DNA from: an uncultured Gemmatimonadota bacterium
Lineage (GTDB): Bacteria > JAAXHH01
NCBI GenBank assembly: GCA_951812955.1
Contig: OX638340.1
Location: forward strand, 2,752,001-2,816,000
Direction of reading: 5' to 3'
Length of the DNA: 64,000 nucleotides
Part shown: positions 2,687 to 23,619 of the stretch, in pieces
Position numbering within the stretch: position 1 is the stretch's first letter
Layout of the letters: every line of letters begins with the position of its first letter
Notes under the pieces: model-generated
The model's input: only the letters and a program-made list of their open reading frames with translations
The model's database searches: none
Told to the model about the DNA's origin: nothing
Translations under genes and position numbers: made by a program

Positions 2687-2724
2687 TACTCGTCTTCATC
2701 CGCGCGCTTCAAGGACGGCGCAAC

Positions 2725-8200: not shown

Positions 8201-8268
8201 AGGACGACGAGGCCCGCCGCGCCGACGGCGATGGGACGATGAATTGCAGAGGAGAGAAATCTATCCAT
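5212..8268 (-). CDS. RND family efflux transporter permease (AcrB/CzcA superfamily), subunit 2
   Basis: 1018 aa. 12-TM RND architecture with large periplasmic loops; typical N-terminus (IHRPIAVGAAGLVVLALGVASLAQLPLSLQPDIDYP) and many RND consensus blocks. Confidence 0.9.
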   Translation of the reverse strand: MDRFLSSAIHRPIAVGAAGLVVLALGVASLAQLPLSLQPDIDYPTLVISADWPGASSEAVVKHVTAPIEAELASVPGIVEVRSVSREGNARVQAGCDPAAPVAVTRALVVDRLAVLRPDLPPHVRPRVSEAPPEIFRDLDGFMSYRLSGPVTDHALRRLALEDIRPALLAVDGVSDVEVIGGREEELHLLLDASRMENTGLSPADFHRALRLGVESHAAGTLRRRGASVPLWTAPLAVGIHDLARLPVTSDGDRVLRLGDLAETRWTLSTPQGVSRVNGLPAITVEIARQPGTNMLNVADRVKNQMETLGDLLPSGVVLSLIVDRSDDVRLALRDIALRVSVALIAIVLLLLLFLRQLRTVVILLSTIALSALGAMICFKALGLGLDLLTISGLALAFGILVDNAVVVYENIRRRREEGEDRDSATVQGTTEMLIPVAATTLTTVVALVPIIYLSNELKQHIGPFALGLGLTLLASVAVAGIWVPVIGRLLDRGATLQAGSRKSTRIGRWYKGVVARMIRWRWPIAVAIVTGFGLSVYLFITDVWKGPSFSWGGAYTYIDVVIYGPPGMETATVDSVAVAFERYALAVGGKGVQVTATVQETRARVHTLFIDRTARSPLPYAMEAEMENMATRFGGLDIGVYGYGQGFSTGGERAVSINYRLRGYNFDDLRNHAERLALKLGRHRRVRNVEITHSPRGGFGSGGPYYELQLKPSQRVLARAGMRLNDLSTALFPYTDRHQPDGELLIEGRRVPYRMLVARKEQTTGFERIPLGGADRRINAGDAGVLAFKRVSTDILRSEQQYERWISYEFVGTIRLADRYRRSFLASVDLPPGYRIDVPNWSDFDQADRGEMNFALGLAVALVLLITSALFESFRRALVVLMTVPMGLTGIFLVFWYFDLSFDRGAYLGTVFMIGIVVNNAILLVDCMARLQRSGMLLDEAIITAAGQRLRPILITSLTTLVGLTPLLITGHPSTRDLWTSLSYTGLSGLAISTVLVLFVTPALYRLIAPGVRQKRA

Positions 8269-8274
8269 GGACGG

Positions 8275-11200
8275 TCAGTTCTCATTGGCGGCGCGGACCG
8301 GTCCGGCCAGCAGTCGGTAAGCGAGGGGTACTACGAACAGGGTCAGCGCGGAACCTATGATCAATCCGCCGATGAGTGTACGCGCCAGTGGCGCGCCCAG
8401 TTCACCGCCCGCGCCGAACCCTGCGGCCAGCGGCGCGACACCGCAGACCGTGGTCACGGTCGTCATTAGAATCGGACGCAATCGGCGCCGGCCTGCCTCG
8501 TGAATGGCCTCCCTGCGGGAAAGTCCTTCTCTTTCGGCACGCACGATGAAATCGACTTTCAGGATCGCATCGTTCACGACGATACCGACAAGGACGATAG
8601 CGCCGATCCAGGTGATGACGTTGACGCTCGCCCCCCACAGGCTAAGGACGACGACAGCGCCCGCCAGCGCCAGGGGAACGACGGCGATGATGATCCACGG
8701 AAGGCGTAGCGATTCGAACTGGGCCGCCAGGATCAGGAGTACGATCAGAATCGAGAACGCCAGCGAGATCAGCATGGACCGATAGGCTGTTCGCAACGTC
8801 GACTGGGCGCCGCCGATATCGACTTCCAGACCGTCCGCCCGGTTGCTCGTCCATCCCGCGTCCGCCAGCAGGCCCCGTATGCGATCGGATACACCGATCA
8901 GGTCGTCACTGTCGATATCCGCGTTTACGATCGCTACGGGCGTCTGGTCGACGCGATACAGTTCGCCTGCGACTTCGACTGGTTCGACCGTTGCCAACGT
9001 GCGTATGGGAACCCGGCCCACGGCCGTATCGATGGGTTCGTCCAGAATGGCCTGCAACCCGGGCTGTTCCTCCTGGCTTCCCCGCACCACGATGGGTATG
9101 CGTTCATCGGTTCGGTTGAACATGGTCGCCGTCCGTCCATCCATGTAGGTACGCAACGCGTCGGCGATCTTCGCGGGCTCCACGCCGAGTTGCGCGGCGC
9201 GGCGTTCATCCACCACGACGCGATAGCCCGGTCGTCCTTCGACCCCCTGAAGGACGACATCAGCCAGCGGCAACCCGGACGCACTCAACAACGACCGCAG
9301 GACTTCCGCAACGTTTCCGGACGTGTTTTGATCGTCGCGTCCGTCGCTTCTGCGCGTGAGCACCTTGATGGATACGTCGGGTTGGTTTCCGATCAGCGCT
9401 GTCGACATGGCGGTGACCGGCGGTTTCATTTCGACCGCGGTTCCCAGGTGAACCGGAATCTGCCTCCTCAAGGTCGCCATGGCCGTTTGGACGTCGGTCG
9501 CGGTTTCATCGAGATAAACCTGTATCTGCGCCTGTTCAAGTCTCATGGCCCCCGGCGCCGACCCCGGCACGAAGGAAGACACGGCTGCGCCCGCCGTGGT
9601 CAGCGTGCCGCGCACCCCCGGGAGGGAGCGAGCGATGTCGGACAGTTCGCGTGCGGATTCCAGGGTGGCTTCCAACGAAGAACCCTGCGACAGCGAAAGT
9701 TCCATCCAGAACGCACCTTCATCGACTTTCGGAAAGAATGCCCGGGGAAGGGACCGACCCAGGTGCGCAGCGGCTGCCAAGAAAACCAGCAACAGGACCG
9801 AAGTCCGTATCGGATGATCGATGATTGCGTCCACGGCGCGGCGATACATATCATGGAACCTGGAGGACCGCGACGATACGCGGGTGGCGTCGCGCCGCGT
9901 CCATCGGGCCACGAGGGTAGGGAGCAGGGTCAGCGCCACGACCCACGCGAGCAGGAGCGTCACGGTGACGGCCAGCGCCTGATCCCGGAATAACTGTCCC
10001 GCGACGCCCGGCGTCAAGGCCATCGGCAGGAATACCGAGACGGTGGTGAGCGTAGATGCGGCCATGGGCAGTGCCACCTCCGTGGCGCCGCGTCCCGCAG
10101 CCGAATTCGCGTCGAGGCCGGTCTCCCGGTGCCGCGCGATGTTCTCGACGGAGATGATGGCGTTGTCCACCAGCATGCCGACGCCGAGTGCCAGGCCACC
10201 AATGGACATGACGTTCAATCCCACGTCTAGCGTGTCGAAAACGAAGAAGGAAGCGATAACGGCCACCGGCATGGCGATTGCTACGGGGATAGCGTAACGG
10301 ACGTTCCGGAACCAGAGAAGCAGGGCTAGGAACGCCAGCACGCCGCCGCCGGCCAGTGCCGTCAGCGCACCCCGGATGGACCGCCGGACGAAGTCGGCCT
10401 GATCGAATGCCGAGGTCAGCGCGATATCCGGATATTCGGCGTAGAATCCCACTATCACCCGATTAACATCGTCGCTGGTCGTCAGCAGATTTGCGTCCGC
10501 GGTCTTCTGGATCAGGACACCGACGGCGGGCATCCCGTCGAACAGTACGGCCCCCAGCCGCTCGCGTTCGCCCATCTCCACCTCCGCCACGTCGCGTAAA
10601 CGTATCGGTGCGGCCCCGGGTTCGCGGATCAGCACGGCTTCGCGCATATCCTCCAGGGACCGGAATGCGCCGTCAATCCTCAGGGCGTAGCGGTAGTTTC
10701 CGCGACGAAGGAGACCGGCGGGCTTGTCCTGATTATATGCCGCCAGCATTGCGTGTACGGCGTCCAGGGTCAGATCGTACGCGGAGAGACGGGTGGGGTC
10801 TATCGTGATCCGTACCTCCGGCCCGGCGCCGCCGATCACCCTGGCGCGGGCGACGCCCGGCGTCTGTTCCAGCCGGGGTCGCAGTATACGCTCTCCCATC
10901 TGTTGCAACGTAGCCAGGGAAGGTCCATCCTCCCCTGATCCGGATCTGAGCGCCAGGCCCATCATGGGCGCGTTGTCGGGATCAGTATCCAGAACCACGG
11001 GACGGTCGCTGTCCTCGGGCAGGTTAAACCGTTGCGCGTCCAGCCTTTCGCGCACGATCTGGACCGTGTTTCGAAGATCGGAGCTCCAGGCCAGTTCGAC
11101 GGTCACGAGGGATTCGCCCTCCCTGGAGATGGACCGCACCCGTTGTGCGCCGGGCAGGTTCCGCAGGGTTGATTCTATGGGTTCGGTGATCTCCCGGACG

Positions 11201-11376
11201 ACCAGACCCGGCGGGGCGTTGGCCCAGGTCGTCCACACGGTGACGGCGGGGATCTCAAGGGGCGGAAGCAGATTGACGGGAAGACGGGTCAGGGCGATGA
11301 GTCCTACGAGTACGGCGGCGCCCATAAGGCAACAAGTGGCGACAGGCCGTTGAACGGCAAGGCGGGAGAGATTCAT
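8275..11376 (-). CDS. RND family efflux transporter permease, subunit 1
   Basis: 1033 aa. N-terminus MNLSRLAVQRPVATCCLMGAAVLVGLIALTRLPVNLLPPLEIP is typical of RND permeases. Lies 7 bp upstream of the second permease. Confidence 0.9.
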   Translation of the reverse strand: MNLSRLAVQRPVATCCLMGAAVLVGLIALTRLPVNLLPPLEIPAVTVWTTWANAPPGLVVREITEPIESTLRNLPGAQRVRSISREGESLVTVELAWSSDLRNTVQIVRERLDAQRFNLPEDSDRPVVLDTDPDNAPMMGLALRSGSGEDGPSLATLQQMGERILRPRLEQTPGVARARVIGGAGPEVRITIDPTRLSAYDLTLDAVHAMLAAYNQDKPAGLLRRGNYRYALRIDGAFRSLEDMREAVLIREPGAAPIRLRDVAEVEMGERERLGAVLFDGMPAVGVLIQKTADANLLTTSDDVNRVIVGFYAEYPDIALTSAFDQADFVRRSIRGALTALAGGGVLAFLALLLWFRNVRYAIPVAIAMPVAVIASFFVFDTLDVGLNVMSIGGLALGVGMLVDNAIISVENIARHRETGLDANSAAGRGATEVALPMAASTLTTVSVFLPMALTPGVAGQLFRDQALAVTVTLLLAWVVALTLLPTLVARWTRRDATRVSSRSSRFHDMYRRAVDAIIDHPIRTSVLLLVFLAAAAHLGRSLPRAFFPKVDEGAFWMELSLSQGSSLEATLESARELSDIARSLPGVRGTLTTAGAAVSSFVPGSAPGAMRLEQAQIQVYLDETATDVQTAMATLRRQIPVHLGTAVEMKPPVTAMSTALIGNQPDVSIKVLTRRSDGRDDQNTSGNVAEVLRSLLSASGLPLADVVLQGVEGRPGYRVVVDERRAAQLGVEPAKIADALRTYMDGRTATMFNRTDERIPIVVRGSQEEQPGLQAILDEPIDTAVGRVPIRTLATVEPVEVAGELYRVDQTPVAIVNADIDSDDLIGVSDRIRGLLADAGWTSNRADGLEVDIGGAQSTLRTAYRSMLISLAFSILIVLLILAAQFESLRLPWIIIAVVPLALAGAVVVLSLWGASVNVITWIGAIVLVGIVVNDAILKVDFIVRAEREGLSRREAIHEAGRRRLRPILMTTVTTVCGVAPLAAGFGAGGELGAPLARTLIGGLIIGSALTLFVVPLAYRLLAGPVRAANEN

Positions 11377-11612
11377 GATCGCTCAGGTATAGTGGCCGTC
11401 CGCGATACGATAGACCGCGATTCGGGGGTTGGGCTCGCCGTCCTCAACGGGCGCCATATCGACCCGTACATTTCGTCGTCGAGATCAGGCGGCGTGTCGC
11501 GTACCCACTCCAGGTTGGAATCCCGCGCGGTGGCGGGGTCGGAAGATACAACCAGAAGGGCGAAGATCATCACGGGGATAACGAGTTTCAACACGTTGTC
11601 TCCTCTCGTCAC
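11373..11612 (-). CDS. Small hypothetical protein (signal/TM-anchored) inside the RND operon
   Basis: 79-aa ORF that overlaps the adaptor stop and the permease start with ATGA overlaps at both ends. GAGGAG sits upstream of an in-frame GTG. Hydrophobic N-terminus LKLVIPVMIFALLVVSS; the rest is low complexity. Unconfirmed. Confidence 0.25.
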   Translation of the reverse strand: MTRGDNVLKLVIPVMIFALLVVSSDPATARDSNLEWVRDTPPDLDDEMYGSIWRPLRTASPTPESRSIVSRTATIPERS

Positions 11613-12820
11613 TCCATCATGCTCACGCTCACCGGGACGTCATGGGCCAGCGTGACGTTTCCGGTAACGGCCACTGTATCGCCTTCGGCGAGTCCGGAGG
11701 TGATTTCTCGCCAGTCGTCTGCCTCCCGGCCCAAGGCGACGTAGGTCCACTGGGCCCGTCCATCCCGTATTCGAAAGACCAGGGGGCGCTCGTCGCGGAC
11801 GACGATGGCGCCGGCGGGCACGGCCAACCGGTTCTCGTAGAGCGTACCCTCGATTCGGATCTCGGCGTACATGCCCGGTTTCAGCCGGCCGTCGGCGTTG
11901 GGCAGGTCGGCCTCAACGTAGCCCGTGCCCCTTTCCTCGTCCACAGCGGGGTAGATACGGGCGATGCGGCCTTCGAAGGATTCTTCCGGCCAGGCGACAA
12001 CCCGAATCCGTATGCCGCGGCCGATGTCGACTGCGCCTAAGTCGCTTTCCAACACGGCGGCCTTGACGCGGATACGGGACACATCCATGATCGTGAGGCA
12101 GGTTTCCCCGGCGGCGACCTGTTGACCTTCTTCGACGAGTCGTTCTGCGATGATGCCGGAATAGGGGGCGTTGATGGCGGTTTGTTCCAGGTCCAACACG
12201 GCGCGAGCATGAGCGATCTCCGCTCCGGTAAGGCCGGTATTCTGCGCGATGAGATCATACCTGTGATCCCCGGAGAGTAACTGCACGGCTTCGTAGTCTC
12301 TGCGGGCGGTCTGAAGCGCCGCCTGATCGATTTCCTCCCGCTCGATGGCAGCTTGCGCCTTGCGCCAGGCGTTTCTCTTGGTGTGTGTCCAGGTCGTATC
12401 GGGCGCCGTGACTTCGGTAGTGTCGGTGATGAATAGCGCGTACCTGTACCGGGCGTCCATGAGCGCCGAACGGGCTTCGTCCACCTGGATGCGGAACCGT
12501 TCTTCTTCCAGTCGTGCCAGGAGTTGGCCCTCATTGACAGTTTCGCCCTCGCGTACCAGGACGCTTTGGATTCTGCCGCCTACCCCCGCGCTCAGATCGG
12601 TCCGTCGTCCGGCCAGGAGACGACCGGAGGCCACGATCGTCCTCGTCAGCGTCCTTTGGGTTGCTACCGCGGCTTCCACGGGGAAGGGCTGCGGCTCGGT
12701 TTCCACCGGGACGGCACCCATAGGCTCGTTCGAAGTACCGGTCGGTTCGGGTCGCAGGAATATGACCGCCGCGACAATGGCGAGGATGACGATAATGAGG
12801 ATGGGAATGATCGTTTTCAT
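11609..12820 (-). CDS. Efflux RND transporter periplasmic adaptor subunit (membrane fusion protein, HlyD family)
   Basis: N-terminal TM anchor (MKTIIPILIIVILAIVAAVIFL); biotinyl-lipoyl-like and beta-barrel regions; C-terminus RIRDGRAQWTYVALG...GDTVAVTGNVTLAH typical of MFPs. Confidence 0.88.
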   Translation of the reverse strand: MKTIIPILIIVILAIVAAVIFLRPEPTGTSNEPMGAVPVETEPQPFPVEAAVATQRTLTRTIVASGRLLAGRRTDLSAGVGGRIQSVLVREGETVNEGQLLARLEEERFRIQVDEARSALMDARYRYALFITDTTEVTAPDTTWTHTKRNAWRKAQAAIEREEIDQAALQTARRDYEAVQLLSGDHRYDLIAQNTGLTGAEIAHARAVLDLEQTAINAPYSGIIAERLVEEGQQVAAGETCLTIMDVSRIRVKAAVLESDLGAVDIGRGIRIRVVAWPEESFEGRIARIYPAVDEERGTGYVEADLPNADGRLKPGMYAEIRIEGTLYENRLAVPAGAIVVRDERPLVFRIRDGRAQWTYVALGREADDWREITSGLAEGDTVAVTGNVTLAHDVPVSVSMME

Positions 12821-12823
12821 GGA

Positions 12824-13273
12824 TTATCCTGAATGATTGGCATTCCCCATGAATATCATACGATGCTCGAGAATCAACTTCCGACGTATGGGTTTGCCGG
12901 GTGAATAGCTCAGATACCCCCCGAAGCCTCTTTCTCTTGCGTACACGTGCGCGACGGGTTGGAATTGTGCTCGATACACACTGTAATAGAACACCATTTG
13001 AATGGGACGGATCAGTCTGACCAACAAACTGGCCTTGATTGTGCGTCGAGGGAAATGTACGTCGCCGTCGTCATTGGTTGTCCTATCCTGGCTGCTATAG
13101 GTTTTTTCAAGGGCGAAGTGCCGCCAATACTGGTGTACGTCAACACCTTTCAGCGGGTAACCGTCCCTGTCGAACACAGTAACGCTCCAGGCAGGTACTA
13201 CGGTGGACTCTACAGGATAGCCTATTACAACTGCTGTGACAAGAATGATCACTGTCACAAAGTATTTGCGCAT
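12824..13273 (-). CDS. Hypothetical secreted protein
   Basis: 149 aa with a signal peptide (MRKYFVTVIILVTAVVIGYP). Sits in a locally AT-richer patch. Its stop lies 4 bp from the adaptor start and it overlaps the MauE gene end. No recognisable family. Confidence 0.4.
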   Translation of the reverse strand: MRKYFVTVIILVTAVVIGYPVESTVVPAWSVTVFDRDGYPLKGVDVHQYWRHFALEKTYSSQDRTTNDDGDVHFPRRTIKASLLVRLIRPIQMVFYYSVYRAQFQPVAHVYARERGFGGYLSYSPGKPIRRKLILEHRMIFMGNANHSG

Positions 13274-13731
13274 TTAAACGCCTCCCTTATTGAAAATGGA
13301 ACGTGACGCGCGTAGACAAGACTTGAAGCGGCCGCCAATATGAACGTATTCCGAACCAGCACTTCGGCAATGGAGACGTTTCTTAAGTCATCGCCTAATC
13401 CGAAACAACCGCACGGCAGGTCTGCCCCGTAATACAGCCCCCAGGCCAGCGCGCCCATAAAGGACAACATCAGCAGCACAACGATCATCGCGCTATATCG
13501 GATCCATACCCCAATCACGAGACATAAACCGGTTGAGATTTCGATCCAGGGCAACGCAAGGGCGAAAGGGACTGCCAGCGGCTCGGGTACAATGTCATAC
13601 GACCGCACGATCTGCGCGAAGAGTTCGAGCTCCGGCATCTTGGCCAACCCTGCCCAGATAAAGATACCCCCTACCACTAAACGCAGCGCCAGGAGACCGA
13701 AGGGAACTATACGATCGTGTCCGCTTGCCAT
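13255..13731 (-). CDS. MauE/DoxX family membrane protein
   Basis: Four predicted TM helices and the CGCFG motif (DLPCGCFGLGDD) characteristic of methylamine-utilisation MauE-like / DoxX proteins. Confidence 0.7.
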   Translation of the reverse strand: MASGHDRIVPFGLLALRLVVGGIFIWAGLAKMPELELFAQIVRSYDIVPEPLAVPFALALPWIEISTGLCLVIGVWIRYSAMIVVLLMLSFMGALAWGLYYGADLPCGCFGLGDDLRNVSIAEVLVRNTFILAAASSLVYARHVPFSIREAFKCANTL

Positions 13732-13755
13732 GATTCATTTACCCCCGATGCATTT

Positions 13756-14844
13756 CTACAATGTGTCGAGAGGTTGCCTGAGCGTGTATGTCACTACGGC
13801 GGGATTGGATGACTCGTCGGCGGGTTCCACCAACATGTACAGACGATCTTCCCGTGTGAAGAGCGCGTCCGGACCTCCCATGAAATCCGGCATCTGGAGA
13901 CTGCTCGCGATCTGGTTCAGATCGGCATCGTACAGATCCATGAAGACGCGGGACCCTTGCGGGTCGGCGAATACTGCGCCCAGCCACCGATCGCCGATTC
14001 TAAGGAGTTGATAGAACTGGCTCCATGAACGCATATACTCCTGCCGTTTCCGCATGTCGTCCAGGACCATCGCGTCGGGCGGGTCCCGCGGAGGCACGTA
14101 GAAGGGCGATCGACCCTGCGCGGTTTTCACGAGTTCGCCATCGGGCGTGTATTTCCTCACGGTATATTCGTACGGGGTCGCGACGTAGAGAAACCGCCCG
14201 ACCGATACAATCCCTCCACCCCGTGAAGCCGCGGCGACATTGTAGTTCTCGGACTGAGGGGCGAATTCATTGAGCGTATCGCCCTGATCGTTCAATTCGT
14301 GCACCACGTGAATTGCGCCGCTGGTATTCACGTATCCGAAAACCCGACCCTCGGCAGTTACGTGTATATCTTCCAATCGCGGCGAAGGCGAGAAGCTGTT
14401 CCTGAAAACATAGTCGTTCCCGTAGATTGAAATGCGTGACAGCGTCATGTCGTAAAGTAAAAAAACTCCATCTCGCGTAGCCGCCAATGCAAGGGGATAG
14501 CGATACTCGCCGGGACCATCGCCCGGAGCGCCGAGGTGTTTTTTGCCTCGTCCCTTCCCATCGAATACGTCGACGCGAGTGGTAACGAAGTCCAGCACGA
14601 TGCAATCACCGTTGGACGCCACGGCGCCGATCTTGGGCAAAGGACCGAGCAGGAACTCATCGCTCGAATCGAGATTGATCCTCGATTCCACCCGGTAGAC
14701 ATCGTCGAATGTCAACGGTCGCTCCTGGCTCGCGCATGCCAACGGTCCGCACAGTCCGCATAGTATGAACAGCGCAATGGCAGAACGCGAAGCGGGACAC
14801 CATCTTGTAACGGGTGTAAAGGAACTGAGGTTTTTCGTGCTCAC
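13756..14844 (-). CDS. 6-bladed beta-propeller lipoprotein, TolB-like/NHL-like (paralog A)
   Basis: Signal peptide plus lipobox-like LAC. Repeated beta-strand blades (GDCIVLDFVTTRVDVFDGKG, LYVATPYEYTVRKYTPDGELV). Clear paralog of 15566..16717. Confidence 0.7.
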   Translation of the reverse strand: MSTKNLSSFTPVTRWCPASRSAIALFILCGLCGPLACASQERPLTFDDVYRVESRINLDSSDEFLLGPLPKIGAVASNGDCIVLDFVTTRVDVFDGKGRGKKHLGAPGDGPGEYRYPLALAATRDGVFLLYDMTLSRISIYGNDYVFRNSFSPSPRLEDIHVTAEGRVFGYVNTSGAIHVVHELNDQGDTLNEFAPQSENYNVAAASRGGGIVSVGRFLYVATPYEYTVRKYTPDGELVKTAQGRSPFYVPPRDPPDAMVLDDMRKRQEYMRSWSQFYQLLRIGDRWLGAVFADPQGSRVFMDLYDADLNQIASSLQMPDFMGGPDALFTREDRLYMLVEPADESSNPAVVTYTLRQPLDTL

Positions 14845-14889
14845 GGTGCGTATCCTTTCTATGTCGCGTTGTGCTTCGCCGTCGTGGAA

Positions 14890-15531
14890 TCAACCTTGTG
14901 CCGCGATGGTATTGATGTAGACGCCAAGCTTCTCATAGAAAGTGACGGTTCCCTGTTCGTCCTGATAATCCGAGTAATTCGCCAGTAGAACTCGATTGTC
15001 ACGTCCCAGAAACACGATCAAGGGGTATCTGTTGTAATCGAACCTCTTTAACAGATGTGATTCGGCGTCCATTACGGCAACGTCTTGAATCCGGTATTGT
15101 TTCAGATGAGAGAGAAAATGGGTCTCTTGAAAATCGGAAAAAACCATAATGGCGTCTATGTTTCTTTCCCTCAAGCGACTACGATACTCGTTGAACAACC
15201 GAAGCTCCATGTCCAGACAGCGGTTGCAGTTCGTTCCCGCAAAATGGTAGATCAGCTTATAACCGCCCGTATCCGAAAACAGGTCTCTGAACCTGGTGTT
15301 GGCGCGCTGCAATCGAGCTAGATCCGGTCCCAGACCAGCGCCTTCAAGCGCATGTTCATGGATGGTCAATTGTTCGCCTATGCTCATGGTCACCTTGTTC
15401 TTCCACGTGCCGTTTTCGGCGGTTAACTCCGATACTCTTTGGAACAGCACGATATTCAATGTGAGCAAGGAAACAATTCCGGCTAAAAGCCATTTTCGAG
15501 GTATGTCGAGACTAACCGCATTCGATGACAT
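14890..15531 (-). CDS. Thioredoxin-fold protein with CxxC motif (TlpA/MauD-like redoxin)
   Basis: N-terminal TM/signal anchor (WLLAGIVSLLTLNIVLF). Redox motif GTNCNRCL (C-x-x-C) in a thioredoxin-like context. Confidence 0.6.
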   Translation of the reverse strand: MSSNAVSLDIPRKWLLAGIVSLLTLNIVLFQRVSELTAENGTWKNKVTMSIGEQLTIHEHALEGAGLGPDLARLQRANTRFRDLFSDTGGYKLIYHFAGTNCNRCLDMELRLFNEYRSRLRERNIDAIMVFSDFQETHFLSHLKQYRIQDVAVMDAESHLLKRFDYNRYPLIVFLGRDNRVLLANYSDYQDEQGTVTFYEKLGVYINTIAAQG

Positions 15532-15565
15532 GCGGACACCTCCTACGGGCTTTACTGTAATACGC

Positions 15566-16717
15566 TTAACCCGATGATTTGAGTTCGTAGACGACTACAG
15601 TTGGATTGGGCAGATTCTTAACGTCCTGCGACAACACGACGGGTGCTTCTGAACGCAGCAGATAGAGTCGGTCACCCCTGGAGACGATCCCCTGCGAACC
15701 ACCGCCAATGTGCTCGGGCAATTGCAGGTCGCCGGTAACGTAATTGAGATCTGTGTCGTAGAGATCCAAAAACACGCGACGCTCATTTGGTTCGGCCAGG
15801 ACCACTCCTATCATCTCGTCTCCTATCTTCAACAGTTGTCTTATGTGGCTCCACGTGGCGTGGTACGCTTGTCGTTTGCGGAGATCGCTCGAAATTTCGT
15901 GCTCATCAAAGTCTGTCGAAGGCGGCACATAGTGCGACGATCTGCCCCGTACCGTTCGAATCAGTTTTCCACCAAGATCGTACTTCCGAAGTTCGTACTC
16001 ATAGGGGGTGATTACATAAAGGTGTGAACCAAGCAGCAAGATACCTCCCCCTCTGGATTCTCCCACGGTACTGAACTCCTCGTATTGATCGGCGAAACTG
16101 TTCTTGATCTCTCCTGACCTAGTGCACTCGTAGACTACCCTATCGGCCCCCTTCCTGCTAGCGACACCACTCGTATAGCAAAAGAAGCGATCGTCGGCTG
16201 TCACGATAATCTGACCCAGGAAAAGAGGAAGATCGACACTGCTGTTGAACGTAAAATCTTCGCTGTACTCCTGGATTCGCAGAAGATCTCCATCGTATAC
16301 GTAGTACCTGTGTGTTTGATCGCTATAGTAAAGGTTATCGGGGTAGAGGTATTGGTCCGCATTCGTCCCAAGACTTCCAATCTTCGCCTTGCTTCCGCCC
16401 TTGGAGTCGAATACAAGTATCTGTCGAACCCCGAAGTTATCCAACACAATGAAATCGCCCTGTTCGTTTATCGCGCTGAACCAGGGCAAAGCGCTCAGCG
16501 TGAAGCCCGAATCATTGGCAAGCGGGATCTGACGTATTTCTGTATACACTTCCAAGAAAGACTGTTTATCTCCATAGGAATCGGCGAGATGAGCAATGGA
16601 TGTATTGCGGGCTTCTTCCATCGAACCATGAGTACTCTGACACGCCATTGCTCCCATGAAAAACACCATTAGCGAAAAGGACAGCAACCGTAGCGTTTCA
16701 TTCGTTCGCTCTGACAT
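15566..16717 (-). CDS. 6-bladed beta-propeller lipoprotein, TolB-like/NHL-like (paralog B)
   Basis: Signal peptide plus AMAC lipobox-like. Blades GDFIVLDNFGVRQILVFDSKG and LYVITPYEYELRKYDLGGKLI are colinear with paralog A. AGGAGG lies 9 nt upstream of the ATG. Confidence 0.7.
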   Translation of the reverse strand: MSERTNETLRLLSFSLMVFFMGAMACQSTHGSMEEARNTSIAHLADSYGDKQSFLEVYTEIRQIPLANDSGFTLSALPWFSAINEQGDFIVLDNFGVRQILVFDSKGGSKAKIGSLGTNADQYLYPDNLYYSDQTHRYYVYDGDLLRIQEYSEDFTFNSSVDLPLFLGQIIVTADDRFFCYTSGVASRKGADRVVYECTRSGEIKNSFADQYEEFSTVGESRGGGILLLGSHLYVITPYEYELRKYDLGGKLIRTVRGRSSHYVPPSTDFDEHEISSDLRKRQAYHATWSHIRQLLKIGDEMIGVVLAEPNERRVFLDLYDTDLNYVTGDLQLPEHIGGGSQGIVSRGDRLYLLRSEAPVVLSQDVKNLPNPTVVVYELKSSG

Positions 16718-16750
16718 GGTTGGATTCCCTCCTCATTAGCTTGCCTTTAA

Positions 16751-17087
16751 CAGTACAACCGGAAAGTGCTCGCTTCTTAAGTTGACGCTTATCGTGAATC
16801 GAACCACCACAATCCTATCGGTCAGGCTTGACTACGCTCAAGGCCAGGTATGAGCGCTAAATGGAGAACAATGATGAGATGTCGAGGGCTGGCAGTGGTA
16901 CACGTTATTTGCTACATGTACCCAATTGTATACTTGATTGGCTCCTGCCGGCTCCGTGGACAACGCCAGCATGCTCATTGCGCCGGCCATCGTCAATGCA
17001 CCGACGAACATTACACGAGTGAAGATGCTTCTGATTGAAGTTTTGATGACCGTGCTCCTTTCATTGTGCCTTTCCGGTTGTACTGTG
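16751..17087. repeat. Perfect 16-bp inverted repeat (cagtacaaccggaaag / ctttccggttgtactg) flanking a 305-bp AT-richer segment
   Basis: Read directly from the sequence. Left arm 16751-16766, right arm 17072-17087. The IR extends to 17 bp with one more matching base. Confidence 0.8.
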
Positions 17088-17170
17088 CAATGAATAAAAT
17101 GACACCTGACCGATAGTCATCAACAGATACATATTGGAAGTGGAAACGGCTGGATATTTAGGGTAAAACC

Positions 17171-17692
17171 CTACACCTCCATAATCTCCACCAGTTCGTC
17201 TTCAGGATACGGGAAATGCCCCTGGGTACCCCGGTTGACCCGGGCCATGCGCTCCCCGAACACCATGTCTTCTCTGATCAATTCCGAAGTCCTGTGAATG
17301 CACTCCAACGTTGGGATTCCTCCTGTCGCGATCGCTGCTTCGGCTTCCTCCAGAAGAGCCGTCATGTCGTAAAACATCTTGATATTCGGCGACAGCATCT
17401 TGCGAGCCTGTTCCGGCAGTGAGGCGCGTAACTCCAGACAGAGATCGAGGGCTTTCAGAAGATGTTCCCTCGCGATTCGAAAGCACTTCCGTGCTTTACT
17501 CAGTGAAGCGCGATACGGCAGGATATTTCCCGCCAGGCAGGCGCCCAGATCTTCTATTTCCTCCAGGGCGCCAAGTCCCATGAAATAGTGGCCCCATCCC
17601 GTAAGTGTGAGCGGATAGATCCGGTGTTCGAAGGCTTCTTTGAGCTCCACATTGTCTGGCATCGGCGGAAGTGGGCAGGTCCAATCAGACAT
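17171..17692 (-). CDS. Hypothetical protein (173 aa)
   Basis: Clean ORF with no family recognised. First gene downstream of the palindromic operator-like site at 17793-17809. Confidence 0.5.
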   Translation of the reverse strand: MSDWTCPLPPMPDNVELKEAFEHRIYPLTLTGWGHYFMGLGALEEIEDLGACLAGNILPYRASLSKARKCFRIAREHLLKALDLCLELRASLPEQARKMLSPNIKMFYDMTALLEEAEAAIATGGIPTLECIHRTSELIREDMVFGERMARVNRGTQGHFPYPEDELVEIMEV

Positions 17693-17792
17693 TGTAGGCC
17701 TCCTTCAGTACATCAATTGGTGAAGAGACTCGCGGAGATGGAACACTGGAACGATCTACCCATTAAAGAAAGGAAAGCCGGACCGGTTATCT

Positions 17793-17809
17793 ATAGGGTG
17801 TATCCCTAT
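17793..17809. promoter_or_regulatory. Palindromic operator-like site ATAGGGTGTATCCCTAT, copy 1
   Basis: Perfect 6-bp arms with a 5-bp spacer. About 100 bp upstream of the start codon of 17171..17692 (minus strand). A near-identical copy lies at 18612-18628. Confidence 0.45.
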
Positions 17810-17890
17810 TTGCTCGTTTTTTTTCACCGGAATCGAAAAAACCTGATTCCGGTCTTGAAGGAGTAGAGCGTCTCCTTTAAACGAACGTGT

Positions 17891-18526
17891 TCATTCTTCC
17901 ATTTTGATCAGACCAAGTTTGATCGCCGCTCGGATCAGATCGGGAAGGCTGTGCGTGTCTAGTTTCGCCATCAGATTTATGCGATGATTCTGCACGGTTT
18001 TTATACTGATTCGCATGGTTTCGGCTATCTGGCGATTGGATCGCCCCGATACGATCAGTCGAAGGATTTCGCGCTCACGGGGAGTAAGCCGGGGCGGTGT
18101 GCCATGGGGGTACTCCTCATACAGGTAATCGGCATGATCCATGGCCCGGGATTGGTACGTAACGCCCCTGCAAACGGTGCGTATCGCTTTGACCAACTCT
18201 TCGCCCGCTGATTTCTTGAGCACGTAGCCCCTGGCGCCGTTGTCCAGCGCTTTCCGGATCAGTGCGGGATCGGAATGCATCGACAGCATGACCACCCGGA
18301 CCTCGGAAAACGACGCGCGAATCCGCCTCGTCGCTTCGATACCGTTGATACCGGGCATCTCGACGTCCATCACTATGACGTCCGTTCGGACTCGATGCAC
18401 GGCATCGATCGCCTCCCGGCCATCCACGGCCTCGGCGACTATTCGAATATCGGACTCTTTTTCGAGCAGGTCCCGCAGCCCCTGCCGAATCAGATGATGA
18501 TCGTCTGCAATCACTACGCGTATCAT
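17891..18526 (-). CDS. LuxR/NarL-family response regulator (REC + HTH)
   Basis: MIRVVIADDHHLIRQGLRDLL...DVIVMDVEMPGINGIEA... C-terminal LuxR HTH (LTPREREILRLIVSGRSNRQIAETMRISIKTVQNHR). Confidence 0.9.
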   Translation of the reverse strand: MIRVVIADDHHLIRQGLRDLLEKESDIRIVAEAVDGREAIDAVHRVRTDVIVMDVEMPGINGIEATRRIRASFSEVRVVMLSMHSDPALIRKALDNGARGYVLKKSAGEELVKAIRTVCRGVTYQSRAMDHADYLYEEYPHGTPPRLTPREREILRLIVSGRSNRQIAETMRISIKTVQNHRINLMAKLDTHSLPDLIRAAIKLGLIKMEE

Positions 18527-18611
18527 ATGATGTTCGCGATCTCCTCTTCTGGTCGTTACATGACGAAATCCGTCGTTTGCTCAATACTAACAACAAAAAG
18601 GGGGACTATCC

Positions 18612-18628
18612 ATAGGGTGTTTCCCTAT
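18612..18628. promoter_or_regulatory. Palindromic operator-like site ATAGGGTGTTTCCCTAT, copy 2
   Basis: Located in the 196-bp gap between the two response-regulator genes, about 85-100 bp upstream of the 17891..18526 start codon. Confidence 0.45.
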
Positions 18629-18722
18629 GTTCCGCTTTTTCTTACGGTATTGGGGGGCTGAAGTGGCGAGAGAGATAGACTGCGGCCAACCGGATTGCTA
18701 CCAAGCGGGGAAAGACGACGGT

Positions 18723-19376
18723 TCATTCATCCAGGAAAGCGAGACGGTGCTTGAGGGCCAGGAGTATGAGATCCGGCAGATTGTGGACTTTCAACTTCTT
18801 CATCAGGATCGCGCGGTGTTTTTCCACGGTCTTGTCGCTGATGTTCAGGACCTCCGCCGCGGCCTGATTGGTATGTCCCTCGACGATGAGCTGAAGTATC
18901 TCCCGTTCGCGGGATGAAAGCTGCTCCAGAACGGCCTTTGACTCATTCGCCGATTCCGTCTGCAGGAATCCCGATAGCACGGTTTGAGCAATCGAAGGTG
19001 AAAGATAGATTTCGCCCTTGTTGGCGGACCGGATGGCGATCAGGAGTTCCTCCACGACGGATCTCTTGAGGAGATACCCGCTGGCCCCGCATCTGAGCGC
19101 CTGGCGCACCACGTCCTCATCCGAATGCATGGATAGTATGACGACGCGGGTATCGACGGACAGCGTCTGAATCCGCCGCGTGGTCTCGATACCGTTCAGC
19201 AAAGGCATGGCGATATCCAACATGGCGACGTCCGGTCTCTTCCGTTGTACCAGGTTCAGGGTCTCGTGACCATCGGCCGCTTCGCCGACAACTTCCATAT
19301 CCTCGGCCTTTTCGATTAGAGACACGATGCTTTGACGGACCAGTTGGTGATCGTCGGCAATAACGATCCTGATCAT
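18723..19376 (-). CDS. LuxR/NarL-family response regulator (REC + HTH), paralog
   Basis: MIRIVIADDHQLVRQSIVSLIE... LSSREREILQLIVEGHTNQAAAEVLNISDKTVEKHR. Its start overlaps the kinase stop (ATGA). Confidence 0.9.
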   Translation of the reverse strand: MIRIVIADDHQLVRQSIVSLIEKAEDMEVVGEAADGHETLNLVQRKRPDVAMLDIAMPLLNGIETTRRIQTLSVDTRVVILSMHSDEDVVRQALRCGASGYLLKRSVVEELLIAIRSANKGEIYLSPSIAQTVLSGFLQTESANESKAVLEQLSSREREILQLIVEGHTNQAAAEVLNISDKTVEKHRAILMKKLKVHNLPDLILLALKHRLAFLDE

Positions 19377-22159
19377 TTCTCCTCCAAAGGAATTGTAGCG
19401 ACCAGACGGGCTCCCGCGCCTGGTTTCGAGTAAACATTCATGCGGCCATTCAGCGATTCAAGGCGTTCCTGCATATCTATCAAACCGATTCCTGTTTCAT
19501 TCTGATCCGAAAGTGTATCTGCAAGATCAAAACCCTGGCCGTTATCCTGTATCGATAGTTGTACGACTTCGCCATTGCGTTTCAAGCTAACTTCCACATG
19601 AGAGGCTTGTCCGTGTTTGACGCAGTTCGTCAGCCCTTCCTGCAGTATACGATACAGGCAGATATCGATTGGATTGGAGATTTCCGTAGTATCCATGCCA
19701 ACGTATGAGACCGGCATTTGAGTTCGTTGTGTTAAACTCTTGCATAGTCCTTCCAATGCTGTATTCAGCCCGACTGTATCCAGTGTCGGGGGACGGAGAT
19801 TATGGGAGATCGCACGTAGTTTCTCCAGCGTCTCGTCGGTTAGCGCCACGGCGTCGCTCAGCCGTTCTGCCGTATGATCGGAGACCCCGGACAACTCGTT
19901 CCGGGTTATTTCAAGGCTCATCTTCAGCGCCGTGAGCGCTTGTCCCGTATCGTCATGGAGATCCCGCGCCAGCCGGCTTCTTTCCGATTCCTGAATGTCG
20001 ATGAGTCGTCTGGAGAGTCTCTTCAATCCCAGGGCCTGATGCCGTAGCGATGTTGCCATATCGAGGTTCTTCAACGCCAATTCCAATTCGGCCGACAGGA
20101 CCAGCAACTGTTCTTTTTCATCGCTGTTGAACGGTTCTTCGCTGAGTTTTGCACCCAGTGCAATACATCCTTGACGGTCAGATCCTTGTCCGAGTACGAC
20201 CATGAGTTCGCACCCGGTGTCTCTCATACTTTCATTTGCGTACAGTTCGCGATACTCGACCAACGATTGCTCGGGGGGTATCGATCGCAGAAGGCCTTCG
20301 ACCTTGCCGGCTGCTTCAGTGAAGAACGTTTCATTTCTCTTGAGATCCTGCTCCGGCTTCTCACGCACTGCGTACCATCGGACCGAAAGCGATTCCTGAG
20401 GACTTTCTGCAAGGTATATCGCCAGATAGCAAACGTCCAATCCCTCCAGCAACTCTTGCCCGGTGGCGCTCAAAAGCGCATTACGATCCTGGTATTGCGT
20501 TAAGGATTGCTCGAGTCTGAAAAGGCGTTGTCGGTTTTCATATTCATCACGCAAAAGATATTGATTCAGTAAGCGGATGACGGGCGTCTTCACCCAGGTC
20601 CACCCTCCGACGAGTATCAAGGTGAATCCAGCGGCAGCGCTGGCGATCAGAAGATCGGAGGTTTCCATACCGGTCGGCCACACGGATATCAGTTCAAATA
20701 GTGCGATTAACGTCCAGAAGCTGAATATGAGATATATGCTCTTGGCATTGGCCAGGTAACGCAGACCACTTCCGAAGACGAACTTCAGGCCGAACACTCG
20801 GTGTGCCAGAATGGTATAGACAAAGGCGAGCGGCAGTCCACACTGCAGTACTACGTGGATGATCCGATCGAAGAGCCAGACTAATACCGGCAGGGCGGCC
20901 CCCCTTATTGGAATCAGGTCCCAACTGGCCAGAAGTGTACCAGGTTGCGTAATAGTCCACACGGGAGCCAAAATGAGGGCCGAGATGAATCCTGCCTTGA
21001 TGATATGCAGTCGCGTGCGTTGCTGATGCCGCGCGACGGAACGTTGGGCTATCATAAGACATCCCGCGGCGATGACAACGAGGGTGGGCAGCGCGGGAAC
21101 GGGCACTGGTTCAACGATTTCCGTGATGATACCAACTCCTGCGTGGTCCCACCCATAGGTCAGACTCAGCAAATAGATCAGACGGCACGATAGCCAGACA
21201 ATCAGGGGCGTCAGGATGAACCACCGGTTTTTGAGCAGCCATGATCCGAAAGCCGTCGCACTGGGGAAGACGGCAAGAATCCGAAACATGAGAACGATTT
21301 CCAGTAAGGATGCCGCGACGATGGCGAATATGCTGAGGAACAGTACCCAGTCCGGCCATCCGGCTATCATGGGATGGAAAGCGGGCGAGGAGGAAAGCGC
21401 CATAGCGAGGAAGAGCAACGCGCATCGAAAGGCAAGGGGACTGTGCGGACTCCTGAACCCCATCCAGGTTCCGAAGACCAGCAGGACCATCGGTAAAATC
21501 AGATACGGCCCCCGTTGGAACCACGTCATCGCGCCTACGCCCAGTACGAGTTCCTCCTGATTGACCTCGACTGCGTATCGTACCTGTTCCGTGGCCTCAA
21601 GCGTGAGTATACCAGCGTGCATGCTGCCGTCGCGAAGCCAGGCAAGATTGAAACGTTCACCGGGCTTGCTCCGCAAACGCGCCTGGAAATAGGCTTCGGG
21701 ACGTGTCCCGAGATCCGTGCCATCAATAGAGATCACCAGGTCACCCGGTCGCAATCCGGCTTTGTCCGCAGGGCTGTCCGCGTCTACTTGCGTGACGGTA
21801 ATACCGCCGTCCTCGCGTATGCGAACGAGGTGGAACCACGTGCCCTCCTGCAGATTGCTCACCGCACTTTTCGTGAGTCCCTTCGTCTGTATCATTTCAT
21901 TTCCGAAGAACTGGATACCCGGTGACCAGTGCTCGATTTGCGTGAACCGTACCAGCGTCCACGTGACCAGTCCTAAATGCATACACGTGAACATGACCAG
22001 TGCGCTGAGTGCGACGTATCGGCGGATGAGTGTCTTCAACCGAGAGCTACTCAATTGCGAGGGAATTGTATTTGAAGAGTCATTCATGTCAACATACAGA
22101 TTGCTTTTCGAGAAGCATCCTGAAGCAATTTCGGAAAACAGGTGGACTTGACTCAACAA
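19373..22159 (-). CDS. Membrane sensor histidine kinase with N-terminal PDZ domain, multi-TM region, GAF-like and HisKA_3/HATPase_c domains
   Basis: PDZ-like segment VTQVDADSPADKAGLRPGDLVISIDGTDL after TM1. About 8-10 hydrophobic helices. H-box ERSRLARDLHDDTGQALTAL (NarL-type HisKA_3). Then N/G boxes (DNGQGFD, GIGLIDMQERL). Confidence 0.85.
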   Translation of the reverse strand: MLSQVHLFSEIASGCFSKSNLYVDMNDSSNTIPSQLSSSRLKTLIRRYVALSALVMFTCMHLGLVTWTLVRFTQIEHWSPGIQFFGNEMIQTKGLTKSAVSNLQEGTWFHLVRIREDGGITVTQVDADSPADKAGLRPGDLVISIDGTDLGTRPEAYFQARLRSKPGERFNLAWLRDGSMHAGILTLEATEQVRYAVEVNQEELVLGVGAMTWFQRGPYLILPMVLLVFGTWMGFRSPHSPLAFRCALLFLAMALSSSPAFHPMIAGWPDWVLFLSIFAIVAASLLEIVLMFRILAVFPSATAFGSWLLKNRWFILTPLIVWLSCRLIYLLSLTYGWDHAGVGIITEIVEPVPVPALPTLVVIAAGCLMIAQRSVARHQQRTRLHIIKAGFISALILAPVWTITQPGTLLASWDLIPIRGAALPVLVWLFDRIIHVVLQCGLPLAFVYTILAHRVFGLKFVFGSGLRYLANAKSIYLIFSFWTLIALFELISVWPTGMETSDLLIASAAAGFTLILVGGWTWVKTPVIRLLNQYLLRDEYENRQRLFRLEQSLTQYQDRNALLSATGQELLEGLDVCYLAIYLAESPQESLSVRWYAVREKPEQDLKRNETFFTEAAGKVEGLLRSIPPEQSLVEYRELYANESMRDTGCELMVVLGQGSDRQGCIALGAKLSEEPFNSDEKEQLLVLSAELELALKNLDMATSLRHQALGLKRLSRRLIDIQESERSRLARDLHDDTGQALTALKMSLEITRNELSGVSDHTAERLSDAVALTDETLEKLRAISHNLRPPTLDTVGLNTALEGLCKSLTQRTQMPVSYVGMDTTEISNPIDICLYRILQEGLTNCVKHGQASHVEVSLKRNGEVVQLSIQDNGQGFDLADTLSDQNETGIGLIDMQERLESLNGRMNVYSKPGAGARLVATIPLEEK

Positions 22160-22307
22160 GCAAGTTTACTCGATCCAGGCCCGATACACCACCGGCGGTT
22201 TTCCCCGATCTCTGTACGACGACATGACCGCTTACATACAGCGGCCGGAACAGTGGCGTCACGTTCATGGGGTCGGTACGAGGTCGGGGCATGTCAGGGA
22301 AGGGATA

Positions 22308-22703
22308 TTAGCCGTCCGGTTCGGCGACATAGGTGTAGAGGATCGTTCCATCCCGGTCAAGCTGGAAGACCTCGTACCGCTTGGAGGGCGAGTATAGAAT
22401 ACGGCCATCAGGTGTTTGCGACAGATGGTTAAAGTTGGTTCGCACAGGTATGGTTGGTTTGCCGCCTATCACGAACTTACCGATTCCGTAACGAAGATTA
22501 CCGCCCATTTCGTAAACGGCGAAAATCGGTTCGTCCCATACGGAATTCACGGCGATCTCTCCGTCGTTCCCGGCCAGGATTCCGCTGGGAGGCAACAGAT
22601 TCTCGATGCGAAAATCCGAGAGGTGCGCGCCGTTCATCGTAAAGACCGTAATACGATTGTTTCCCGAGTCAAGAACAATGACTTTCTCATTGGATATGGC
22701 CAC
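22308..22703 (-). pseudogene. Fragment of a 6-bladed beta-propeller protein (same family as 13756..14844)
   Basis: VIVLDSGNNRITVFTMNGAHL...YEVFQLDRDG aligns to internal blades of the intact paralogs. It lacks the N-terminal signal and the C-terminal third, and flanking frames are broken. Confidence 0.55.
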
Positions 22704-23032
22704 ACCTAGAGGTCGATTCAGCTCTCCGGGACCAGACCTCCCATACTATTCCGATGAGAAACCGCCCCTGATGATTCGACCACCCAGATCGTGTGATGCC
22801 GGTCGTCAGCCAGAAAGAAACGGCCATCCGCGTCCATGTTTTCATGATGTCTGTGACCGATAGTATCTGGGCATTGGGCGGATAGTTAAGCTTGCCGTAA
22901 CCTGGGGCAATCGGCCTCGTAAGTCGCGATGACGGTACCGTCCCACTTCATTCTGAATACGGGGTATTCCTTGACCGCAGAATATAGAATATGACCCTCA
23001 GGCGTCTGGTTGAAATGCTGATCGCCCTGGTC

Positions 23033-23566
23033 CTATCCAACAGTCTGGTCTGGCACTCTTTCACCTCGGCTTCCTACAACGCTACCACACAAATCGTAGA
23101 CCGTAAAAAGTGTTTGCCCCCAGAGAGAATTGACCGCGATCTGGCCGTTCTTGCTCGCCAGTATTCCGGATGTCATTTGAAATTCCAACCGGAAGTCGTC
23201 TAAATACATACCATCCATCTTGAATATCATTACCCGGCTATTGCCGGAATCGTTCACGATGACTTTGTTTTCAAATACAGCTGCTCCTCCTGGACGCAGC
23301 AGTTCACCGGGGCCGGCCCCGTCCCGGCCAATGCGGCTGATCAGTTTGCCCTCTGAGTCACAAATCCAGACTGTATTCTGCTGCCCGTCCGTCAGGTAAA
23401 ACCGGCCGTCGTTGTCCCGTATCAGGTCTCCGATTTTTCCAGCAATCTCATCTTCAAGATCCAGCGGAATTGCACTGACTTTCTCGACTGCGAATGGCTG
23501 GGCATTTGCGGAACCCAAAAGTAACCACCATGATACAGGTTGATACAACCATGATAAGAACGGCAA
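23033..23566 (-). pseudogene. N-terminal fragment of a 6-bladed beta-propeller protein (signal peptide retained)
   Basis: Signal peptide, then VIVNDSGNSRVMIFKMDGMYLDDFRLEF...QIAVNSLWGQTLFTVYDL, highly similar to fragment 22308..22703 and to the intact paralogs. Truncated after about 177 aa. Confidence 0.55.
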
Positions 23567-23619
23567 AGTCGTTTACGCCTTTCTTCAAGAATTCACGTGT
23601 AAGGCGCCTCATTCCCACA

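Follow-up and report, generated by a model that had tools for sequence, protein, structure and literature searches.

A rare gene cassette joining a two-cysteine peptide with a Sec-type leader to NHL-type propellers and a membrane-anchored thioredoxin-fold protein

Here we present a gene cassette centered on a small two-cysteine peptide, found in a 64,000-nucleotide stretch of DNA from an uncultured Gemmatimonadota bacterium (assembly GCA_951812955.1, contig OX638340.1, positions 2,752,001 to 2,816,000; this whole stretch is the window, and coordinates are counted from its first letter unless a related locus is named). The peptide gene is followed by genes for an NHL-type beta-propeller (PROP1), a membrane-anchored protein of thioredoxin fold (TRX), a second propeller (PROP2) and a MauE/DoxX-family membrane protein, and the order peptide-PROP1-TRX recurs in distinct relatives. 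The cassette is rare and previously undescribed. Two of its elements are new: the peptide family itself, and NHL propellers as constant partners of a presumed extracytoplasmic thiol-redox module. Tentatively, and with somewhat less than even confidence, we read the locus as an operon for a small exported peptide, in which TRX, together with MauE in this genome, acts on the peptide's cysteine pair, the propellers are its partners and an adjoining pump may export the product. The genes of the cassette are:

16838..17047, minus strand: peptide gene, 69 codons, encoding a Sec-type leader and a 33-amino-acid core
15566..16717, minus strand: PROP1, 383 amino acids, NHL-type six-bladed beta-propeller of the DUF5128 family, probable lipoprotein (Cys26)
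14890..15531, minus strand: TRX, 213 amino acids, with N-terminal transmembrane anchor, helical linker and ResA/TlpA-fold domain
13756..14844, minus strand: PROP2, 362 amino acids, PROP1 paralogue with a non-canonical lipobox
13255..13731, minus strand: MauE, 158 amino acids, MauE/DoxX-family membrane protein with about four transmembrane helices, accessory

An earlier note on this DNA had reported the last four of these as minus-strand open reading frames (ORFs), and they were found where it had placed them, with intergenic gaps of 34 (PROP1/TRX), 45 (TRX/PROP2) and 24 nucleotides (PROP2/MauE). The same note had stated that no obvious precursor gene was present, which proved wrong: just beyond the span that it covered, 120 nucleotides upstream of PROP1 and on the same strand, lies the conserved 69-codon ORF of the peptide. 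The encoded precursor begins with a Sec-type leader, IKTSIRSIFTRVMFVGALTMAGAMSMLALSTEPAGA, and continues into the 33-residue core, NQVYNWVHVANNVYHCQPSTSHHCSPFSAHTWP, whose C-terminal part reads YHC-x7-C-SP-x-SAH-x-W. The leader is hydrophobic and ends in PAGA, with an AxA signal-peptidase site. Across 14 diverse sequences, a His-Cys pair, a second cysteine eight positions on (C-x7-C) and a serine four residues after that are invariant; in most peptides, moreover, the histidine is preceded by an aromatic residue, the second cysteine is followed two positions on by proline or threonine, and the sequence ends in an aromatic residue or has one close to its C-terminus. The leaders are mostly basic at the N-terminus, then hydrophobic over a long stretch, and have a cleavage site of the Pro-x-x-A-x-A type.

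The ratio of nonsynonymous to synonymous substitution rates (dN/dS) of the peptide gene is about 0.1 against a 92% relative (locus L005) and about 0.08 against a 76% relative (L001), the latter comparison being one in which synonymous sites are saturated (proportion of differing synonymous sites, pS, 0.81; of nonsynonymous sites, pN, 0.14). Because of this low ratio, and because the relatives have in common a Shine-Dalgarno site and the position of the start, we conclude that the ORF is a real gene under purifying selection. A profile of the core, run over 3,228 ORFs of at least 30 amino acids from the window and 31 loci, finds a single ORF in the window (E=2e-17; next window match E>2) and one ORF in each locus that retains the gene, with two in L011 (E=1e-18 to 1.6e-8; next match 2.5). 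The peptides form a sharply bounded family. The peptide alignment, searched against 5.8 billion proteins, returned only 12 clusters, the few named ones being 'hypothetical protein'; this is also how the gene is called in a few assemblies, and elsewhere it is unnamed. No family matched the peptide in Pfam or NCBIfam (E up to 1) or in PDB sequence searches. The two gene copies of L011 (217-679) lie in tandem ahead of PROP1 and have diverged from each other.

To follow the cassette across genomes, 34 loci obtained via PROP1, TRX or the peptide were scanned with profiles built for this analysis. Wherever PROP1 is intact and the flank is long enough, in about 19 distinct loci, the peptide gene stands immediately upstream of PROP1 and the order peptide-PROP1-TRX is constant. 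Four loci, L031 to L034, were reached through TRX representatives only, and all of them carry PROP1 with the peptide gene upstream; since they were fetched via TRX alone, they provide an independent check of the linkage. The arrangement is not due to chance. Furthermore, in the two lineages in which PROP1 is truncated (L009; L004/L007/L013), the peptide gene is gone too. Co-occurrence, which the earlier note had named as a way to check its gene set, bears out the cassette for these three genes, and extends to MauE in two lineages only. A second propeller follows TRX in most lineages; its place is taken in L026/L027 by an ADOP/MacB-like permease that overlaps the TRX stop, and in L008/L025 an unclassified 851-amino-acid multi-pass membrane ORF comes after TRX. 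The hosts are uncultured Aminicenantes and Acidobacteria, plus the Gemmatimonadota bacterium of the window. A short precursor gene with a leader and a core, co-located with dedicated partner genes, is the make-up of a locus for a peptide that is ribosomally made and then post-translationally modified (RiPP), and this is what the cassette has. In profile scans, none of the known RiPP enzyme families appeared in the conserved core, a PapB-like radical SAM protein being found near L012 only. There, at L012 121-4175, the MauE-propeller-peptide-PROP1 set has upstream of it a gene of the PapB-like radical SAM/SPASM kind (E=3e-36, under cutoff), which seems to lack its N-terminus, and one for an AraC-type regulator, an arrangement seen in this locus alone.

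Modules of like design were also seen at L002 5488-7278, L009 4988-7018, L016 3851-5952 and L029 2223-4580, where they adjoin the main cassette or replace it. Each has its own secreted Cys-rich small protein (4-8 cysteines), together with a distantly related DUF5128 propeller and a small protein anchored in the membrane, the last being clearly thioredoxin-like with a CPAC motif in L009 and a distant TRX relative in L029.

TRX had been described in the earlier note as an anchored CxxC protein of the TlpA/MauD kind, and the anchor, the motif and the fold all stand. Residues 14-31 are hydrophobic and preceded by basic residues, which on reading the sequence gives an N-terminal transmembrane helix and separates TRX from an anchorless cytoplasmic peroxiredoxin. 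In the AlphaFold model (predicted local distance difference test score, pLDDT, 72) this helix is followed by a helical linker and a thioredoxin fold resembling those of ResA, TlpA, DsbE and StoA (Foldseek probability 1.0, target-normalized template modelling score up to 0.68), with the active site C102-N-R-C105 after strand 91-98 at the N-terminus of helix 1 and an invariant E109. What does not stand is assignment by sequence: Thioredoxin_8 scored 20.4 bits against a cutoff of 27, Redoxin 14.5 against 26.6 and the ResA model 18.3 against 170 (E=1.7e-3), and the best match of a PDB profile search had E=0.57. TRX has the TlpA/ResA fold but not sequence membership above curated cutoffs. Like ResA, TlpA, DsbE and StoA, it is anchored in the membrane, its thioredoxin fold does not have the DsbA insertion, and its CxxC motif opens helix 1 and is closely followed by an acidic residue; unlike them, it falls under every curated cutoff, has a C-x-R-C dipeptide without proline, and carries an extra helical linker with an invariant EH..EG. 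It also belongs to a family with many monothiol or cysteine-free members. PROP1 forms 26 clusters and TRX 12, and a full-sensitivity HMMER search of 1.84 billion proteins found 64 TRX representatives at E<=1e-3, 24 of them at E<=1e-30. Roughly one in three close representatives has another residue in place of the second cysteine (C-R-R-S/A/N/T), and two are free of cysteine, while Arg104 and Glu109 stay conserved. The function common to the family may be peptide binding, with redox activity kept in C-x-R-C members such as the one in the window.

For the 158-residue protein, the assignment to MauE/DoxX made in the earlier note was confirmed: with PF07291 it reaches 93.6 bits, the cutoff being 27 (E=1.6e-26), in a match that covers profile positions 5-127 of 128; with DoxX it scores 37.7 bits against 23.6 (E=3e-9), and with the HvfX model it stays sub-threshold (24.6 bits against 80, E=2.4e-5). 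Read by the positive-inside rule, its PCGCFG motif would lie in a periplasm-facing loop. MauE was seen only in the lineage of the window (L001, L005 and L006, downstream of PROP2) and in L012, where it is upstream of the second propeller, and the CGCF motif is conserved in both lineages. It is accessory and stands outside the conserved core. Thus, of the proposal that MauE and the CxxC protein are a dedicated periplasmic thiol-redox pair for one substrate, the general idea survives, but not MauE as a constant member.

The earlier note had further described the two propellers as lipobox-bearing paralogues. Both match PF17170 (DUF5128; E=2.2e-7 for PROP1 and 1.9e-9 for PROP2; the two propellers score 37.6 and 30.8 bits against a cutoff of 22.9), and they are 40% identical over 328 amino acids (E=2e-71). 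By reading, FFMGAMA-C26 of PROP1 fits the PROSITE-type lipobox rule, and the cysteine column is kept in 21/23 sequences; the lipobox claim is weaker for PROP2, where GPLA-C has proline at -3 and is non-canonical. In a tree the PROP2 clade is sister to PROP1, and second propellers fall in two clades. The AlphaFold model of PROP1 (pLDDT 88.5) has six four-stranded blades and a short helical insert (residues 272-286). Its nearest structures are 4raa (BF0058, a DUF5128 protein) and NHL domains, and the family profile also matches NHL domains in PDB (E=7e-28). The six-bladed NHL-type architecture is shared with these proteins, which are the best structural and profile matches, whereas the helical insert of PROP1 and its family-specific TPYEY and WSH motifs are not; no role has been assigned to 4raa itself, and the NHL domains of eukaryotes are binders of RNA or protein.

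The earlier note had also suggested that the propellers may be the substrates of the redox pair. There is precedent for such an arrangement in the AssT-DsbL-DsbI system of uropathogenic E. coli, in which a periplasmic propeller goes together with a dedicated thioredoxin-fold protein and a dedicated, DsbB-like membrane redox partner, and the propeller enzyme is itself the disulfide substrate. In the model of PROP1, C180 and C198 lie on neighboring strands of blade 3, and TRX always adjoins PROP1. Across 26 propeller homologues, however, the lipobox cysteine is the only widely conserved one: C180 is present in 19/26 and C198 in 14/26, pairing is inconsistent, and L010, L016 and L019 lack the full C180/C198 pair, some members having one cysteine alone, though they retain the TRX CxxC. 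Mature PROP2 has a single cysteine. With no conserved pair in the one propeller and one cysteine in the other, the propellers are poor disulfide substrates, and we consider it very unlikely that MauE and TRX act on them as DsbL and DsbI do on AssT. The present system differs from AssT also in having MauE rather than a DsbB-like partner.

The cysteine pair of the peptide, in contrast, is invariant, and for this reason the peptide is the likely dedicated thiol substrate. In the reading that we favor, the precursor would be exported via Sec and cleaved after AxA, so that a peptide of about 33 residues would be released outside the cytoplasmic membrane. The anchored TRX would then perform thiol-disulfide exchange on the cysteine pair, whether by forming the disulfide, by reducing it or by holding a mixed disulfide, and MauE, with its CGC motif presumably facing the periplasm, would in this lineage be the membrane redox partner that reoxidizes or reduces TRX. 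The two NHL-type propellers would be peptide-specific binding or processing partners, and the translationally coupled adaptor and RND system, or a MacB-like one, may carry the product from the periplasm. In favor of this last step, efflux genes adjoin the cassette in two guises, the adaptor and RND pump here and the ADOP/MacB-like permease in L026.

Several points weigh against this scheme. The contact between TRX and the peptide is one that we infer. Dithiol exchange of the classical kind cannot be the family-wide function of TRX, since many members are monothiol or cysteine-free, and the peptide's cysteine pair is invariant even in loci with the Cys-depleted TRX subclade. Most loci have no MauE, and the DoxX partner of the bufferins, discussed below, is dispensable (PMC11626156). 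Neither the propeller alignment nor the PROP1 model reveals a recognizable catalytic site. The adjacency of a pump is lineage-specific. ADOP permeases, the kind seen in L026/L027, are numerous in Acidobacteria. The leader of the window lineage lacks an asparagine conserved in other leaders. Finally, the ancestral start codon of the peptide gene reads ATC in the window: in a DNA alignment with L005 and L001, the codon 7 nucleotides past the AAAGGAG Shine-Dalgarno site is ATG in the relatives and ATC here (17045-17047), and the first in-frame ATG here, at 17011, gives a 57-amino-acid ORF from which the leader's basic N-terminus is missing. On account of this codon it is uncertain whether the peptide is expressed in this genome; the ATC could be a start codon of a rare kind, a genuine defect or a fault of the assembly. 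As a separate observation, the same region in L001 differs by one base in a C-run, with a shift of the N-terminal frame, which may be a long-read assembly error or a real change.

The asparagine in question lies within the hydrophobic stretch (LLxN[ILF]xxLF) of nearly all peptide leaders outside the window lineage, and TRX anchors have asparagine, aspartate or glutamate in a similar context. To judge from these residues, the asparagines of leader and anchor may serve helix-helix recruitment inside the membrane. A general resemblance of leader to anchor was considered and dropped, as a leader-only profile gave E=0.14 to 2.8 on TRX anchors, which is not significant; the same was true of conservation of the leader across distant cassettes (E=6.8 on the L029 peptide, not significant). 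An attenuator between the peptide gene and PROP1 was likewise rejected, the fold being no better than that of shuffled sequence (z=0.58).

A stronger role for the propellers would be that of peptide-modifying enzymes, for example in cross-linking the invariant His/Cys/Ser or the C-terminal aromatic residue, with TRX and MauE supplying or removing redox equivalents. The peptide and PROP1 strictly co-occur and are co-inherited, PROP1 has invariant TPYEY and YH..WSH motifs beyond the NHL signature, and in the distant cassettes of the L029 type another Cys-rich peptide goes with an anchored CxxC protein and a propeller of DUF5128. Some six-bladed propellers are enzymes (peptidyl-hydroxyglycine lyase, virginiamycin B lyase), though these are remote structural matches only, and the closest structures are function-unassigned proteins and NHL binding domains. 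No catalytic constellation or metal site was recognized; a metal site in PROP1 was specifically rejected, because the invariant aspartates of blades 1, 2 and 5 fall on positions of the NHL-repeat signature. In the literature on DUF5128, PF17170 and RiPPs with NHL repeats we found no bacterial NHL precedent for peptide modification, and nothing relevant turned up there or on MauE and DoxX with a peptide, nor did any paper turn up that names DUF5128. We regard an enzymatic role of this kind as rather unlikely.

Another explanation to be weighed is that the product is a periplasmic Cu- or Zn-binding peptide, with ligands in the series His-Cys...His-Cys...His, whose cysteines TRX keeps reduced, as TlpA does for ScoI, and which the propellers and the pump handle in its loaded form. 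Most cores indeed have an aromatic residue followed by H-C-x6-H-C and then S-A-H, the TRX fold is that of the reductive TlpA/ResA proteins, an adaptor and RND pump come after the cassette, and a DoxX-family protein accompanies the copper-binding bufferins (PMC11626156). On the other hand, the second histidine is absent in L008, L010 and L012 and the third in several peptides, and no metal-sensing regulator is conserved near the cassette. Moreover, the RND permeases are best matched by models of the multidrug MdtB/MdtC type, above CusA/CzcA, all of them under cutoffs, so that a link to metal efflux is unsupported. A metal-binding role thus appears doubtful, and distinctly unlikely on balance.

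In its presumed working, the cassette comes closest, among known systems, to the MauE/MauD arrangement of the mau cluster, in which the gene order is mauB-mauE-mauD-mauA. In both, one operon encodes a beta-propeller and a small exported Cys-containing polypeptide along with a MauE-family protein and a CxxC protein of the TlpA/DsbE-like kind. Yet the cassette is not a member of the mau system, because it has no dehydrogenase subunits and no MauG. Its propellers have six NHL blades (DUF5128) as against the seven-bladed heavy-chain family, its peptide of about 33 residues has one Cys pair and no light-chain homology, neither amicyanin nor any other mau gene is present here, and MauE is absent from most relatives. 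As the earlier note had said, there is no dehydrogenase among the neighbors within about 10 kb. The mau parallel raises the possibility that the peptide serves a propeller-based redox enzyme as its small subunit, with a self-derived cofactor, as in methylamine dehydrogenase (MauB and MauA) or quinohemoprotein amine dehydrogenase. The gene logic of propeller, MauE, TlpA-like protein and small exported Cys/Trp protein agrees with this, as do conserved aromatic residues near the peptide's cysteines. The Trp positions, however, are not invariant; the cassette has no conserved partner of the MauG-like heme protein, flavoprotein or radical-SAM kind, and the propellers and the peptide match neither heavy nor light chain. 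Additionally, many of the hosts are Aminicenantes from metagenomes, a group that is mostly anaerobic, which would make an oxygen-dependent quinone cofactor unlikely. Taken together, these points leave the redox-subunit proposal highly improbable.

Away from the mau pathway, MauE/MauD homologues have been reported beside Cys-rich precursors in candidate Streptomyces RiPP clusters found by decRiPPter (PMC7794033). Like our cassette, these clusters have MauE, with or without MauD, beside a small Cys-containing precursor, their function being predicted only; they differ in that the precursors have at least 8 cysteines, that the passages of that paper on MauE/MauD mention no propeller partner, and that the hosts belong to other phyla. 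Bufferin precursors, too, have Sec signal peptides and an adjoining accessory DoxX (PMC11626156). The bufferin/HvfA systems (BufA-BufB-BufC-DoxX) share with the cassette a Sec signal instead of a classical leader, functional cysteines, and a DoxX protein in some operons only. In place of their MNIO (DUF692) and DUF2063 proteins, the cassette has propellers and an anchored thioredoxin-fold protein, and its peptide family is unrelated. No cassette protein matches MNIO (DUF692), DUF2063 or a precursor of the DUF2282 or EGKCG type, and since it has no MNIO enzyme, the cassette is not a bufferin system. Also, none of seven proteins matched the PADLOC anti-phage models at E up to 0.01.

The genes around the cassette are:

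17891-22159, minus strand: two LuxR-type response regulators and a PDZ-bearing histidine kinase (Pfam)
17171-17692, minus strand: 173-amino-acid protein, cytoplasmic, no family match, directly upstream of the peptide gene, lineage-specific
12824..13273, minus strand: signal-anchored protein, 149 amino acids, lineage-specific, weak DUF6795 match (E=1e-3, under cutoff)
11609..12820, minus strand: RND periplasmic adaptor (membrane fusion protein), TIGR01730 with 204 bits against a cutoff of 94.9
8275-11376 and 5212-8268, minus strand: two tandem RND permeases (ACR_tran, E=2.7e-203 and 1.4e-139)
59-5097, plus strand: two large TPR-repeat proteins beyond the RND pumps, the first also with a GWxTD domain

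L001 and L005 conserve the 149-amino-acid ORF, whose start and the MauE stop overlap by 19 nucleotides, and the RND adaptor begins 3 nucleotides past the end of this ORF, so that in the window the cassette runs into adaptor and RND pump through gaps of 3 nucleotides or overlaps. Within about 10 kb the neighbors comprise RND components, a two-component system and a sulfatase, and family profile scans found no radical-SAM enzyme or peptidase among them, in agreement with the earlier note. The genes upstream of the peptide (17171..22159) are present in L005 and absent from L001. G+C content is 0.50-0.57 at 12000-24000, compared with 0.60-0.64 on both sides, and this lower value suggests horizontal arrival of the cassette together with the two-component system. 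Rfam gave no match within 11-24 kb, and promoter and terminator scans of the locus stayed at chance level. PDZ domains bind peptide C-termini; that the PDZ kinase senses the conserved aromatic C-terminus of the peptide is pure speculation.

Further upstream, 22308-23796 on the minus strand looks like a decayed copy of an adaptor C-terminus plus a third type of propeller. The ORF at 23593-23796 is similar to the C-terminal end of the adaptor (11609-12820), and a single propeller seems to have left the ORFs at 23033-23566 (PF17170, E=7e-13) and 22308-22703 as its fragments. The former of these two clusters with a propeller of L001 located between the adaptor and the RND pump, a gene that the corresponding gap of the window (11376-11609) does not have.

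A more far-reaching interpretation would make the NHL-type propellers a previously unknown class of extracytoplasmic peptide-maturing proteins, acting on a Sec-exported precursor that TRX recruits within the membrane, the recruitment being suggested by the conserved asparagine that the TRX anchor and most leaders carry. The cassette would then represent either a new peptide family with modified or cross-linked members or, in uncultured bacteria, a redox protein made up of propeller and small subunit that parallels the quinoprotein amine dehydrogenases. We put this forward as an unlikely outcome.

The small subunit of methylamine dehydrogenase has multiple disulfides and a tryptophan-derived cofactor, and the function of MauE and MauD has been open since the 1990s. 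MauE together with a MauD-like protein beside a candidate substrate of about 33 residues and a single Cys pair would be far simpler to study than that subunit. According to the decRiPPter paper, in its passages on these proteins, MauE and MauD are needed for the methylamine dehydrogenase small subunit, the role of MauE being speculative and that of MauD unclear (as given or cited in PMC7794033). With the cassette, DUF5128 propellers of this clade also gain a functional context for the first time; the family is otherwise known from structural genomics (4raa). Finally, the cassette joins the bufferins among small peptides that have Sec signals and mature outside the cytoplasm, a group that precursor-centered genome mining tends to miss.

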